From a virus (Duplodnaviria > Caudoviricetes): a stretch of DNA of 25,308 nt. Every line of letters begins with the position of its first letter. Within the stretch, counting starts at the first letter, position 1. The stretch is taken from the IMG/VR virus record IMGVR_UViG_3300050330_000015, positions 1-25,308 of that record; one strand, 5' to 3'. Both the position numbers and the translations under genes were made by a program. Positions 16,295 through 21,326 of this stretch are shown in pieces. The notes under the pieces were generated by a model that searched no databases, was not told the DNA's origin, and saw only the letters and a list, made by a program, of their open reading frames with translations.

Positions 16295-17589
16295 TGGCGA
16301 TCCCCAGCGACGTCCAGGAGGCGCTCGACCGCCTCGCGCAGTACAACTCGGACCCGATTTCGCCCGAAAACCCGCACGGCATGGGCAATTACGGCAACCT
16401 GACCGAGTTCCCGCGAGCGCTCGACGACGTCTCCAAGGTGGCGCAGTGGGTCAATGAGACCGGCGGCGCTCCCGGTCCGTCCGGCGCCACGGGACAGAGC
16501 GGCAGCACGGGTCCCAGCGGCGCAACCGGCCCAACGGGCGCTACGGGACCCTCCGGCGCGGACGGACCGACGGGCGCCACGGGACCGAGCGGACCTGCTG
16601 GCGCCACCGGCCCAACGGGTCCAAGCGGCGGCGCTGGCGCGACCGGCGCGACAGGCCCGGGCGGTGCCTCAGGTCCGTCCGGCGCCACGGGACCGAGCGG
16701 CCCTGCCGGCGCCACCGGCCCAACGGGGCCGAGCGGTGCGACCGGCCCCACAGGTCCCAAGGGCGACGGTCTCCAGATCAATGCATCCGGCAGCTTCGCC
16801 GAGCGATCCGGCTATGACGGCGAGGCGCAGGGCTTTGCCTATGTGTCCAACGATGGCGACGGCGACCTGATCACCTCCGCTGTCATTTTCGTCAAGAACA
16901 GCGCCGCCTCGGGCGACTGGTCGGAGCCGATCCCCTTCGAGGGTGCGGCGGGTCCGACCGGCCCGACTGGTGCCACCGGCCCGAGCGGCACGCCGGGCGT
17001 TGTTGGCGCGACGGGCGCGACTGGTCCGAGCGGCCCCAGCGGTAATCCCGGCGATACAGGAGCAACGGGGCCGACCGGCCCGACTGGCGCGACGGGTCCC
17101 GCAGGGGCAACCGGCCCTAGCGGTGCGTCCGGTCCCTCGGGTGCCACTGGCCCGAGCGGAACGCCGGGCGTCGTCGGAGCAACTGGCGCGACGGGGGCAA
17201 CCGGTCCTGCCGGCGCCACCGGGCCTACGGGACCGACCGGGCCGAACCTGTTGCGCGACAACATCGAGAACCAGGGGCCGATCACCGGCGGCGCCGATGT
17301 CACCTCCAAATCGCTCGGCACGGTTACGTCCGGCACGAAGACCCTCGATGTCGGCGACTGCCCGTTGCAGCACTACACCAACAATGGCGCGCACACGCTT
17401 GCGCCGGGAGCGGTGACCGGATCGGCCATGATCGACATTCTGAACGGGGCATCCGCCGGCGCGATCACCACGTCCGGCTTCACCAAGGTGTCCGGCGACA
17501 GCTTCACAACGACGAACGGGCACAAGTTCCGTTGTCATGTCTCTGTCGGCAACAACGGCTCCCTCTTGATCGTACAGGCGCTCCAGTAA
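16294..17589 (+). CDS. Collagen-like tail fibre protein
   Basis: 431 aa with two uninterrupted (Gly-X-Y)34 blocks separated by a globular insert; TGATG coupling to the upstream gene. Confidence 0.9.
16465..16770 (+). repeat. Collagen Gly-X-Y block 1 (34 triplets)
   Basis: GAP-GPS-GAT...GPK-GDG counted from the translation. Confidence 0.95.
16942..17247 (+). repeat. Collagen Gly-X-Y block 2 (34 triplets)
   Basis: GAA-GPT-GPT...GPT-GPN counted from the translation. Confidence 0.95.
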
Positions 17590-18656
17590 TGCGATTCCAT
17601 GTCGTTTCCCTTCCGCACACCAACACCACGGCCGACTTCCCCTCTTGTGCGTTTACCCAAAAGGTCGTTCGGTTCGCGAAGATGATGATGGATCTCGGGC
17701 ACGAGGTCTTTCTCTACGCCGGCGAGGCGAATGAGGCGCCGTGCGCCGAGCATGTGCCGTGCATCTCCGAGCGCCGCCGCGCCGAGATGGTCGGCCTGAA
17801 GCACTATACCGAGGCCGATTGGTCGCATCCGCACTGGCGGGGCTTCTGCGCCAACGTGATCGGCCAGATGCACGAGCGGATCGAGCCGCAGGACTTCATC
17901 TGCCTGATCGGCGGCCACGCGCATAAGCCGGTCGCCGACGCCTTCCCGAAGCATATCAGCGTCGAGTTCGGCATCGGCTATGCCGGCACCTTCGCCATGT
18001 ACCGGGTGTTCGAAAGCTACGCATGGATGCACACCGTCTATGGTGCGCAGACGGGCGGCAATGCCGGCGCCGCCGACGGCCAATGGTACGACGCGGTCAT
18101 TCCGAACCAGATCGAGGATGGGCTGTACGACCTCTCTCGCGAGCGCGGAGACTATGCCCTCTATGTCGGACGGCTGATCGACCGCAAGGGCTATCGCATC
18201 GCGCAGGAGGTCTGCCAGGCCAAGGGCGTCGAGCTGATCCTCGCCGGTCCCGGCCGTGACCGCGGCAACGGCTATGGCCGCTTCGTCGGCGAGGTCGGCG
18301 CGAAGGACCGCGCCACGCTGATGGCCGGGGCGGCCTGCCTGTTCGCGCCGACCGTCTATGTCGAGCCGTTCGGCACGGTGACGATCGAGGCGATGGCCTG
18401 CGGCACGCCGGTGATCTGCTCCGACTGGGGCGCCTTTACCGAGACGGTGGAGCAGGGCGTGCACGGCTTCCGGTGCCGGTCGTTCGCGGAGTTCTGCGCC
18501 GCCTTGGATCGGGTCGGCAGCCTCGATCATCGCCGCATCCGCGATGACGCGCATCGGCGGTTTTCCATGGCGACCGTGAGCCGCCAGTACGAGGACTATT
18601 TCAGGCGGCTTTCGTCCCTGTGGGGCAAGGGCTGGTATGCGGAGGCGGCGGCATGA
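17589..18656 (+). CDS. Glycosyltransferase, GT-B fold family 4
   Basis: True start is probably ATG 17589, overlapping the collagen stop (TAATG); LYVGRLIDRKG and EPFGTVTIEAMACGTPVI (E-x7-E) signatures. Confidence 0.92.
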   Translation: MRFHVVSLPHTNTTADFPSCAFTQKVVRFAKMMMDLGHEVFLYAGEANEAPCAEHVPCISERRRAEMVGLKHYTEADWSHPHWRGFCANVIGQMHERIEPQDFICLIGGHAHKPVADAFPKHISVEFGIGYAGTFAMYRVFESYAWMHTVYGAQTGGNAGAADGQWYDAVIPNQIEDGLYDLSRERGDYALYVGRLIDRKGYRIAQEVCQAKGVELILAGPGRDRGNGYGRFVGEVGAKDRATLMAGAACLFAPTVYVEPFGTVTIEAMACGTPVICSDWGAFTETVEQGVHGFRCRSFAEFCAALDRVGSLDHRRIRDDAHRRFSMATVSRQYEDYFRRLSSLWGKGWYAEAAA

Positions 18657-19132
18657 AAATCGCGCTCATTTTCGCAGCGACCAATGCGGTGCTGCAGGTC
18701 TGGTCTCTCTCCGAGGGCGAAGAAGAACTGGCGATCCGGTACACGCTGCCGGACGGCAATCAGCTCTCGCCGATCAAGCCCGGCTGGGCGAAAAACGGCT
18801 ATTCCATCGTTGCCGTCACCGAGTTCGAGGTGCCGGAAGGCAAGGTCACGAAGGGGCCACCGTCCTATGCGCTGGTGGATGGCGAGGTGGTCGAGACCTA
18901 CACCGTCGAGGACAAGCGACCGATGGTGCGCAAGAGCACCGTGCAGGCCCGGTTGATCGCCGCCGGGAAGATGGGTGACGCCTATGCCGCGCTGACCACG
19001 AATGCGGATCATTTCGCCCGGTGGTTTGCGCCGGATCAGCCGCGCGTCTACTGCGACGATGCGGATTCGGTTGCGTTTCTTGTGGCGCTCGGCCTCGATC
19101 CCGAGGTCTTTCTGAAACAGGAGGAAATGTGA
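18653..19132 (+). CDS. Hypothetical tail-fibre-associated (assembly-type) protein
   Basis: GGAGG RBS, ATGA overlap with the GT stop; 159 aa; C-terminal 'VRKSTVQARL..AGK...A...L' helical region. Confidence 0.6.
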   Translation: MKIALIFAATNAVLQVWSLSEGEEELAIRYTLPDGNQLSPIKPGWAKNGYSIVAVTEFEVPEGKVTKGPPSYALVDGEVVETYTVEDKRPMVRKSTVQARLIAAGKMGDAYAALTTNADHFARWFAPDQPRVYCDDADSVAFLVALGLDPEVFLKQEEM

Positions 19133-19545
19133 TGTTCCTTGTTGCCCCGCCGTTCTTCAAGGTCGCGTCGGGCTTCGTGGCGCCGTCGCGGACGCTGACG
19201 GCGAAGAGCTTTTACCCGAGTGGGCTCTACGGATACATCCGGCCTGGCGGCATATCCGCAGGGGTGTTCGGGGATTCAGGCGGGACGCTTTCCGGCACGA
19301 TGCTGACAGGCTGGACGACAGATATAATTATTCAGGAATCTGGTTCTTGGGCGATATCACTCGGCTTTGTCGGCAACGCCGTTACTGCTCTAGCCGGTTG
19401 CACCGGGCTCAAAGTCAACTCGACCGTGTGTCCGATCTCTTCATCGGCCGTTTATGACGGTGATACCGGTGTGACAGGTTTGAGTTTCGACGGCTCGGCC
19501 ATCCACATGGCCGCCTCCACCGACTACACCGTGCAACTGGTATAG
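19132..19545 (+). CDS. Small Gly/Ser/Thr-rich beta-type protein, candidate fibre-tip adhesin
   Basis: GGAGG RBS, TGATG overlap at 19130-19134; 137 aa; more A/T-ending codons than its neighbours; last gene of the tail block. Confidence 0.6.
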   Translation: MFLVAPPFFKVASGFVAPSRTLTAKSFYPSGLYGYIRPGGISAGVFGDSGGTLSGTMLTGWTTDIIIQESGSWAISLGFVGNAVTALAGCTGLKVNSTVCPISSSAVYDGDTGVTGLSFDGSAIHMAASTDYTVQLV

Positions 19546-19551
19546 GCGCGC

Positions 19552-19624
19552 AAAAACCCGGCCGCAGAATGGCGCTCGGGGAAGCTTGCGGCCGGGAAGG
19601 TTGTCGGAGTGAGTTACTGACAAC
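19552..19624 (-). ncRNA. Candidate sRNA unit 1
   Basis: TTGCAC(19660-19655)-N18-TATTCT(19636-19631); hairpin GTTGTC/GACAAC; 10-bp stem 19557-19566/19587-19596; followed by TTTTT, i.e. an intrinsic terminator. Confidence 0.6.
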
Positions 19625-19672
19625 GCGGGAAGAATAGCCGAAGATGGCGCGCGCGTGCAAGGGATGGAGGGG

Positions 19673-19740
19673 GCCCGGCCGCAGGAGACAGCCCAGAGTG
19701 GAGCATACGGCCGGGCGTGCTGTCGTCTGCACATGACAGC
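19673..19740 (-). ncRNA. Candidate sRNA unit 2
   Basis: TTGATT(19775-19770)-N16-TAATAT(19753-19748); hairpin GCTGTC/GACAGC; 11-bp stem with one G-U. Confidence 0.6.
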
Positions 19741-19780
19741 GGCGGCCATATTACGGCGGATATGGAGACAATCAAGAGAT

Positions 19781-19847
19781 GCCCAGCCGCCAATCTGAAG
19801 TGGCATGCGACCGGCGGCAGGGCTACTGCCACTAGGCGGGCGGCAGC
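19781..19847 (-). ncRNA. Candidate sRNA unit 3
   Basis: TTGAAA(19882-19877)-N16-TAATCT(19860-19855); hairpin CTGCCGC/GTGGCAG; stem 19781-19791/19813-19823. Confidence 0.6.
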
Positions 19848-19886
19848 GTCCAGCAGATTATGCCGGCTGTCCCGGATTTCAAGGGG

Positions 19887-19958
19887 TGCCCGGCCGCCCC
19901 AAGGAGGGTGGCCGTTCGAAGGCAGCCGGGCAGTGCCGCCGTCTTCCACTACGACAGC
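19887..19958 (-). ncRNA. Candidate sRNA unit 4
   Basis: TTGAAT(19992-19987)-N16-TAAGCT(19970-19965); hairpin GCTGTC/GACGGC; 12-bp stem with one G-U; loop contains CCCTCCTT. Confidence 0.6.
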
Positions 19959-19998
19959 GCAACCAGCTTAGCCTGCCGAGGCCGACATTCAAGGTGAG

Positions 19999-20068
19999 AT
20001 CCCGGCTACCGGTCAAAGGGTCGCAGACAGGTAGCCGGGATTGCTGCTCAGTGCCCCCTCCGAGCAGC
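19999..20068 (-). ncRNA. Candidate sRNA unit 5 (promoter degenerate)
   Basis: Perfect 12-bp stem ATCCCGGCTACC/GGTAGCCGGGAT; hairpin GCTGCTC/GAGCAGC; the upstream region has CTGCAC and an extra hairpin in place of a good -10. Confidence 0.5.
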
Positions 20069-20109
20069 GCTATCGGCGCAGCCGATAGAGCCTCTCGTGC
20101 AGGCCGAGA

Positions 20110-20177
20110 CCCGGTCGTCGGCGTTTGGCTGACACGGGGGGTGTCCCGACGGCCGGGCTGCTGCCTGCGACGACAGC
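20110..20177 (-). ncRNA. Candidate sRNA unit 6
   Basis: TTGCCC(20213-20208)-N18-TAGGTT(20189-20184); hairpin GCTGTC/GGCAGC; stem 20110-20121/20146-20157. Confidence 0.5.
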
Positions 20178-20240
20178 TTCCGTAACCTATGCTGGCCAGT
20201 TGAGGTTGGGCAATTACCTCAATAGGATAGCCGGGAGGGG

Positions 20241-20354
20241 CTAGACGAACGGCCATGCCACCATGGCGCAGGCCCCGACAATCGCCGCTGCGATCATCCA
20301 GCCTGTCGGGTGCCTCTCCCACGGATAGGGCGCCCGCTCCCAATTGTAACGCAT
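20241..20354 (-). CDS. 37-aa single-transmembrane peptide
   Basis: MRYNWERAPYPWERHPTGWMIAAAIVGACAMVAWPFV; GGGAGG RBS 9 nt before the ATG; own promoter upstream. Confidence 0.6.
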   Translation of the reverse strand: MRYNWERAPYPWERHPTGWMIAAAIVGACAMVAWPFV

Positions 20355-20450: not shown

Positions 20451-21326
20451 ATGGACCGCGCGAAGTTCTTCGCCGCATTGCGTTCGCGCGACTGCGGCCT
20501 GTTCGGCACGTCCCTGTCTCAGGGGCAGGTGGCAACCCTCGACCTCATGATAGACGAGGGTGAACGGCGTGGCCTGCCGCTGACGCATCTGTCCTATGTC
20601 ATGGCCACGCCATACCACGAGGTCGGATCGAGCCTCCAGCCGAAGTCGGAGAACCTGACCTACACCAGCGCGGCTCGTATCCGGGCGGTGTGGCCGTCCA
20701 GGTTTAAGTCGGACGCGGCGGCGATCCCATATGTCCGCAACCCGCAGCCGCTCGCCAATCTGGTCTATGGCGGACGGCTCGGCAACTCGGCTCCCAACGA
20801 CGGCTGGACCTATCGGGGCAGGGGCCTTTGCCAGATCACCGGCAAGGACAACTATACCCGGTTCGGCAACCTGCTCGGCATCGACCTGGTCAGGAGTCCG
20901 GACAAGGCCATGCAGCCCGATGTGGCCGTGGCGATCCTGTTCGAAGGCATGATCTTCGGCCTGTTCACCGGCAAGAAGCTCGCTGACTACCTCAATGCCA
21001 CGGCGACCGACTATCGCGGGGCGCGGGCGATTATCAATGGCGATGTGGCAGCAAACGGTGCCAGGATCGCGGGCTATGCCAAGGCGTTCGAGGCGGCGCT
21101 GAAGCAGGCCGGGTATTCGAGCCAGAAGCCGCAGCCGCTCCCGCCTGCCAAACCTGCGGAGGCCTCGAAGCCTGCGCTGGCCACACCGCAGCCCGCACCC
21201 GTCCCGCCAGCCCCGGCGCCACAATCCCCTCCCGCCACGCCCGCGCCGCAGGCATCGAAGCGCGGCGGCCTGCTGGCGCTGATCCTCTCCATCTTCGCAA
21301 GACTGTTCGGCCGCAAAGGAGCCTGA
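20451..21326 (+). CDS. Endolysin, glycoside hydrolase family 19-like
   Basis: [14 protein letters not shown] and [15 protein letters not shown] motifs; AAGGA RBS; Pro-rich linker and amphipathic C-terminus. Confidence 0.9.

Follow-up and report, generated by a model that had tools for sequence, protein, structure and literature searches.

What lies between the tail and lysis genes of the Caudoviricetes record IMGVR_UViG_3300050330_000015? The whole record (25,308 bases, completeness about 24%) was analysed and is called the window here; judging from its sequence, it is a fragment of a Mesorhizobium-type siphovirus. From 19552 to 20213, its minus strand carries six two-hairpin units, each made of a 5' hairpin, a linker of 2-4 nt and a CCCGG...CCGGG-type stem enclosing a loop that differs in every unit. 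An earlier note had reported six such minus-strand units at this place and suggested a family of programmable guide or antisense RNAs. We find that the array is real and under selection, and our results support a family of structured RNAs in which the scaffold is constant and the loops vary. With moderate confidence, we interpret the units as separately promoted antisense small RNAs (sRNAs) that block ribosome-binding sites (RBSs).

Structure, strand and predicted promoters of the units

The 5' hairpins start at 20177, 20068, 19958, 19847, 19740 and 19624, with successive spacings of 109, 110, 111, 107 and 116 nucleotides (range 107-116). The succession of short hairpin, linker and GC stem described in the earlier note recurs in every unit, and all six loops that it quoted are present in the window, although the one given for unit 1 is the inner part of a longer loop. 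The units and their associated elements are as follows.

20184 to 20213, minus strand: predicted promoter of unit 1 (-35 TTGCCC at 20213, -10 TAGGTT at 20189)
20110 to 20177, minus strand: unit 1, 5' hairpin and long-loop stem; loop with an inner hairpin and a C6 run
20061 to 20097, no strand: extra palindrome upstream of unit 2, occupying the place of the other units' -10 motif
20001 to 20068, minus strand: unit 2, a two-hairpin unit
19965 to 19992, minus strand: predicted promoter of unit 3 (TTGAAT, TAAGCT)
19889 to 19958, minus strand: unit 3; loop contains CCCUCCUU, the complement of AAGGAGGG; compensatory change at 19957/19936 in a strain variant
19855 to 19882, minus strand: predicted promoter of unit 4 (TTGAAA, TAATCT)
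19782 to 19847, minus strand: unit 4; loop with CAU followed by a C/U run, recurring in the myovirus G797
19748 to 19775, minus strand: predicted promoter of unit 5 (TTGATT, TAATAT)
19674 to 19740, minus strand: unit 5; loop formed of an inner stem and a 3' UCUCC bulge, retained in G797, L325, L327 and L328
19631 to 19660, minus strand: predicted promoter of unit 6 (TTGCAC, TATTCT)
19552 to 19624, minus strand: unit 6, with a U5 tail

Several lines of evidence argue for a folded minus-strand RNA. Folding z-scores on this strand range from -1.8 to -4.9 (200 dinucleotide shuffles) and are lower than on the plus strand in all six units, as is the raw energy in five of them. According to the earlier note, most stem mismatches, though not all, become G-U pairs on this strand; the stem of unit 1 has one C.A mismatch and that of unit 4 one U.U. 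With a model trained on four of the units, the remaining two came out as the top non-training matches in the window, weakly (E 0.05 and 0.07). When 23 distinct units were aligned to the model, 98.6% of stem cells paired, two-sided changes were seen in 10 of 16 pairs and both helices covaried, in an alignment that leans to structure because it was fitted to structure and includes the training units; 0 of 500 shuffles reached this level, and all slid controls stayed below it, at 20-60%. These figures agree with the selection on structure proposed earlier. Strain variants, whose arrays show indels of 1-2 nt, provide evidence independent of the fitted alignment: among the substitutions listed, six of eight at paired positions preserve minus-strand pairing, with one compensatory pair, and two break a pair. 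None of the strain changes listed hits the TTG or TA---T letters of the promoter motifs described below, or the open loops of units 2, 3, 4 and 6.

Two features had escaped the earlier note: the 37-amino-acid open reading frame (ORF) considered below and the promoter motifs of individual units. A sigma70-like motif (TTG...TA---T) precedes five of the six units: TTG lies 34-36 nt, and the end of TA---T 6-7 nt, before the 5' hairpin. The background rate is 3.4e-4 per position, for a motif that was defined after being seen. A -10-like motif occurs in 14 of 16 distinct units, including units found later. The array motifs resemble the Sinorhizobium meliloti sigma70 consensus, CTTGAC-N17-CTATAT (PMC3346310), and a simple Escherichia coli-type promoter scan found nothing over the array. 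Possession of an own promoter, a criterion for trans-acting base-pairing sRNAs, is observed here at the level of motifs only. Separate promoters suggest six genes rather than one processed precursor.

Contigs assembled from RNA runs span the array at depths of 56 (run X15) and 63 (X16), both from one study, the other listed pieces having depths of 3.7-20.8 and 14.7-48.6, respectively. These depths carry no weight as evidence, because assembled contigs cannot show transcription, nor its strand, ends or level, and the flanks are covered too. ORFs of 84-154 amino acids overlap the array; two of them were scanned, with no PHROGs or Pfam match.

Units in other phages and in bacterial genomes

The array directly follows a small ORF, located between it and the lysis genes:

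20241 to 20354, minus strand: 37-amino-acid ORF, hydrophobic in its C-terminal half and with a GGAGG ribosome-binding site; the constant anchor immediately before the array
20451 to 21326, plus strand: flanking endolysin gene (phrog_181), divergent from the cassette
19132 to 19545, plus strand: flanking ORF that closes the tail region, convergent with the array and without a family match

The 37-residue product (best 19-residue Kyte-Doolittle mean 1.98) has three homologous clusters, no Pfam family (best E 0.99) and no family name in Pfam or NCBIfam, and a protein atlas returned sub-threshold leads only. A further stem, at 20382-20330 on the minus strand, pairs the region holding the Shine-Dalgarno (SD) sequence and start codon of this ORF, so its translation may be structurally controlled.

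The ORF served as an anchor in finding related arrays, and the expectation that the scaffold would be kept while loops and unit number vary in other prophages was borne out. Units are preceded by the same ORF in eight other loci (L325-L328, L330, G797, L353 and L354), and the phage and bacterial loci hold 1, 1, 2, 2, 3, 3, 6 or 6 units behind it. In an ORF-anchored search, six metagenome loci had 6, 6, 2, 1 and 1 units, plus one contig ending early. Of 202 genomes in the Mesorhizobium-type genus, 57 have matches to the window in the ORF region alone; the two best of these, read by eye, have two (G899) and three (G979) units behind the ORF. Chromosomal homologues of the ORF also occur in Mesorhizobium without an array (L331, L332), the part matched in the 57 genomes being the start region of the ORF.

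Array carriers behind this ORF comprise a siphovirus, a myovirus and bacterial genomes. The myovirus, G797, is a complete 56.7-kb provirus with a sheath, a baseplate and an endolysin of another family; at the DNA level, it has four blocks only in common with the window. Its three units have a unit-5-like, a unit-4-like and a new loop. In L330, the promoter and 5' hairpin of unit 1 are joined to a new loop, while L325 combines the first 5' hairpin of G797 with a new loop and a unit-4-type 5' hairpin with a unit-5-type loop. In contigs of other runs, some joints leave out part of the array. All of the following are directly observed: the units and their covarying stems, the promoter motifs, the variation in unit number, and the swapping of loops and 5' hairpins among phages.

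Units also occur without the ORF: three of them form an array in G443, near primase-like and integrase genes, and a model search of 151 genomes found single or paired units in six of them, one being G979. Several of the latter sit between ordinary-looking chromosomal genes, which indicates that the scaffold extends beyond phages, but the longer arrays among those found lie on DNA that looks mobile. The units are rare: a strict pattern found one in 1 of 401 genomes, and the model matched at most three times per genome, among 32-150 candidates scored in each. Within the candidates scored, these low copy numbers speak against REP, RIME and MITE repeats.

The earlier note had not recognised a named family in these units. 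No Rfam match was obtained in the window, at gathering or E-value level, or in nine loci at gathering level, and a scan of eight loci gave a best E of 0.13, to an unrelated family. By blastn, the array had one chance 23-nt match against phages and three short matches against plasmids. Viral pattern scans returned 3, 23, 22, 56 and 119 loci, of which filtering left L091 (a single unit, uncertain), L251 (G797 itself) and L184 (two unit-like hairpins, weak). The array is absent from 40 loci anchored on a tail protein and nine anchored on the endolysin. A class-wide model search matched 1 of 151 genomes, unconvincingly; with 32-33 of thousands of candidates scored per genome, this is no evidence of absence.

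Other elements were encountered along the way. Single unit-like elements lie in tail operons of prophages with P2-like tail genes (L091:687-756, whose stem nearly equals that of unit 1, and L289:1583-1649). Two copies of a same-loop unit in G443 (L164:1501-1579 and L317) are each followed by the same unknown ORF, near DUF1236 genes, and single units with a clear promoter stand beside phospholipid-methyltransferase (PEMT/ICMT) genes in three Mesorhizobium-genus genomes (L427, L428, L430). An identical C-rich-loop hairpin followed by a terminator-like hairpin in three Rhizobiaceae genomes (L298:1501-1540, L301, L306; no Rfam match) may represent a related, so far unlisted sRNA of the chromosome. 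A TATAAT promoter with a two-hairpin element recurs in other viral contigs (L016, L017, L021 and L029-L033, near 2501); the model did not match it where tested, and it is perhaps a separate small RNA.

The remainder of the window encodes siphovirus tail, tape-measure and fibre proteins, a glycosyltransferase, an endolysin and a spanin, followed by a DUF433/DUF5615 pair, an SRAP protein and a tRNA end. The group 1 glycosyltransferase gene (17589-18656) directly follows the collagen-repeat tail fibre gene, which suggests virion glycosylation. A related strain's contig from run X15 has an insert of 867 other letters at 20515-20523, near the start of the endolysin gene: an insertion element, an intron or an alternative gene. 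The named members of the window's protein clusters, and of those of a related provirus, are from assemblies of Mesorhizobium and Pseudaminobacter, relatives in Rhizobium and Devosia being more distant. Near-identical DNA is present in sludge, digester, wastewater and sediment runs from 15 studies; among the rows listed, 20 of 22 runs hold some window DNA and seven hold at least half.

Loops, targets and alternative explanations

What could such units do? In the explanation we favour, each would be its own small-RNA gene, transcribed during lysogeny from the minus strand, which runs counter to the late operon, as in a moron. The second hairpin would display a C-rich seed that pairs at the translation starts of different mRNAs and blocks their translation, each unit having its own targets, and the 3' end would fall at or just after the second stem. 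New units would arise by duplication and by recombination in the shared stems. Candidate target classes would be host surface or metabolic genes, competing phages and accessory genes of the prophage itself.

The loops themselves lend support to this antisense role. They are 13-33 nt long, irregular, partly self-paired and biased to C (43% C, 17.5% G). An anti-SD tetramer occurs in 12 of 16 distinct loops and in none on the opposite strand (P about 5e-5; the background is 3.8 of 17 rows, one loop being counted twice). Loop types U4/G797B and G797C are complements of an SD followed by ATG. Exposed anti-SD loops in sRNAs of alphaproteobacteria are expected to block access to the RBS (PMC3346310, section 5). 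Identity among the window loops is 0.451, against 0.455 +/- 0.02 for shuffled loops, so they are no more alike than shuffles. Nor are they hypervariable: strains agree in four of the six, and a different phage carries one of the loops with two changes.

Two target leads emerged, neither of them significant. The first pairs G797C over the SD of the phage's own tcmP gene, at -36.1 kcal/mol (6 of 400 shuffles, one of nine loops). The second comes from a 12-mer derived from unit 5, which has 116 occurrences in 50 of 61 Mesorhizobium-genus genomes, against 6 for a reversed control; one of 40 sites fetched is a clear gene start, that of an outer-membrane beta-barrel gene in one genome (L346), complementary to the unit-5 bulge. 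The shuffle score of L346 is circular, as this locus was fetched for matching, and among 21 other OMP_b-brl start regions no complement was obvious by eye and none was a best match. Against an unrelated locus, whose start is doubtful, the L330 loop outdid all 30 of its shuffles (24 loops tested). The top duplex of G797B was discarded, being formed with its own opposite strand. No long loop complement exists in 50,697 phage records at E<=1. At L322:14140-15701, the tcmP gene of G797 forms a convergent pair with a DUF5131 gene, and the tcmP start is the best self-target of the third unit.

A number of observations weigh against the antisense reading. The target search, which covered the window, G797 and genomes other than that of the true host, established no target. 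Neither the window nor G797 contains an exact complement of more than 10 nt to any loop, and when nine loops were compared with the start regions of their own phage, only G797C beat shuffles, non-significantly after nine tests. The predicted target of unit 4 is no commoner than its control in 31 genomes (22 versus 36), that of G797C occurs in 0 of 41 genomes, and 38 of the 40 sites of the unit-5 12-mer have no start codon right after the motif, another having a GTG with an early stop. Unit 2 has no promoter motif, L326 and L327 show a further mismatch in the unit 1 stem, and the covariation alignment has the lean stated above. The U5 tail pointed out by the earlier note is found in unit 6 only, and this single U tail among six units leaves 3' end formation and Hfq binding unexplained.

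Could the RNAs act without mRNA targets? Expressed decoys or sponges, with the scaffold binding a host protein or the loops soaking up G-rich host small RNAs, would account for the lack of any mRNA target found, and the CCCGG/CCGGG stem base is conserved in sequence as well as in pairing, with 4 of 10 pairs invariant. However, a protein decoy needs no different, strain-stable loop in each unit, and several loops carry SD-plus-start complements; we consider this explanation unlikely.

We give slightly less credence to the idea that the RNA is a by-product of transcription-control or DNA elements, such as stacked terminators, antisense promoters damping the late operon or a REP/MITE-like repeat. 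Single CCCGG...CCGGG long-loop hairpins without 5' hairpin or promoter are indeed present in many GC-rich phage loci, unit 6 with its U5 tail faces the last tail gene, and solitary units lie between chromosomal genes too. Yet promoter, 5' hairpin and stem recur together as a unit, the G.U-compatible changes and C-rich loops are strand-specific, a simple scan found no terminator-like site over the array, and the rarity of units per genome (1 of 401 by pattern, 6 of 151 by model) is unlike REP or RIME.

The programmable guide of the earlier note fares worse: its antisense half is strengthened by the C-rich, anti-SD-like loops, but the guide half is unsupported because no dedicated effector was found. 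Guide RNAs for an unrecognised phage or host effector would fit the constant scaffold, the variable loops of 13-33 nt and their modular exchange, and the effector could lie outside the window since the record is about 24% complete. However, neither a Nop-domain nor a DUF1127 protein is present in the window or in complete G797, which have only the four DNA blocks in common, and the loops are irregular in length, C-biased, partly self-paired, not hypervariable and devoid of long complements in phage records. We regard such a role as improbable. Least credible of all, and very improbable, is that the RNAs are antitoxins or processing partners of the adjacent 37-residue protein (a type I toxin-antitoxin or CcaF1-like pair): this small, hydrophobic ORF directly precedes arrays in eight other loci, but it is not DUF1127, its sole complement in the array is a 10-nt unit 3 stretch near its 3' end, at chance level, and each of the two partners also occurs without the other.

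If the units are antisense RNAs, a bolder proposal can be made, which we advance tentatively and think rather doubtful. Mesorhizobium-type temperate phages might carry an expandable antisense library whose promoter-scaffold-loop modules are gained, lost and recombined like spacers, each silencing one host-receptor or competitor-phage gene at its RBS: a Cas-free, re-targetable array in phage-phage or phage-host conflict. Silencing of receptor or competitor-phage mRNAs would offer an RNA route to superinfection exclusion. The changes in array length and content between phages are a natural experiment in how small RNAs gain targets, and the promoter-scaffold-loop module would be a ready chassis for synthetic sRNAs in rhizobia.

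Relation to known systems

Is this a variant of a known system? As the earlier note had it, the array is not CRISPR, which we reject: the window has no repeat family above two copies and no Cas family among the 37 of its ORFs that were scanned, and the Rfam scans gave no CRISPR repeat. TIGR-Tas systems also have phage-borne tandem stem-loops around variable sequence. They require a Nop-domain protein encoded next to the array and, in each unit, two spacers of 8-12 nt that lie between box C (CCA) and box D (UG) (PMC12045711). We found a Nop-domain protein in neither of two records (the window fragment and complete G797), the control being positive in four archaea. By eye, one CCA is present in five of six window loops, at varying places, and two boxed spacers never. 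In the absence of both Nop protein and paired boxes, TIGR-Tas was rejected.

Prophage sRNAs as such are already known. The Pas sRNAs of pathogenic E. coli derive from phages, act by base pairing, vary in sequence and copy number and in some cases descend from a common ancestor (bioRxiv 10.64898/2026.05.13.724894); they belong to another host class, and no tandem one-scaffold array with exchanged loops is described in the abstract. Within the Rhizobiales, the alpha-r15/AbcR1-AbcR2 siblings and suhB are tandem homologous sRNA genes with an exposed anti-SD (PMC3346310; PMC3712013). In the alpha-r15/AbcR RNAs, which form three hairpins, the 5' hairpin bears a conserved anti-SD loop, and the terminator is U-tailed (PMC3346310). 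In contrast to alpha-r15/AbcR and suhB, the array units have two hairpins, a U tail in one of six and no Rfam match. The alpha-r35b module, also of two hairpins and from Rhizobiales, is described as conserved in primary sequence (PMC3346310); the loops of the array differ from one another.

The cuckoo, CcsR1-4 and alpha-r14 RNAs share much with the array, as alphaproteobacterial tandem two-hairpin RNAs behind a small ORF, with compensating variable stems and anti-SD loops. In cuckoo RNAs, the CCUCCUCCC motif is common to every hairpin loop (PMC4615179), whereas the array loops differ from unit to unit and only the second hairpin carries the variable loop; CCUCCUCCC occurs in none of the six window loops and in none of the 16 distinct loops overall. 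CcsR1-4 (RSs0680a-d) are co-transcribed from one RpoH promoter, and their locus has an upstream DUF1127 gene (PMC4615179; PMC8034643), while five of the six array units have their own promoter motif, the upstream ORF does not belong to DUF1127 and mobile DNA carries the arrays; no DUF1127 gene exists in the window or in complete provirus G797. The cuckoo, CcsR and alpha-r14 Rfam models matched nothing in the window or in the sets of nine and eight loci. Membership of the cuckoo/CcsR and AbcR families was rejected on these grounds: no common CCUCCUCCC loop, no DUF1127, separate promoters and no Rfam match.

No description of the array was found in the literature searched, where subscription papers mostly fall outside coverage. 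In its working, it is most like the cuckoo/CcsR and AbcR sibling sRNAs, and it is apparently an undescribed RNA family, organised as a cassette of variable composition with many seeds. Most of the known tandem small RNAs of bacteria have a common seed; here one scaffold presents many different ones.
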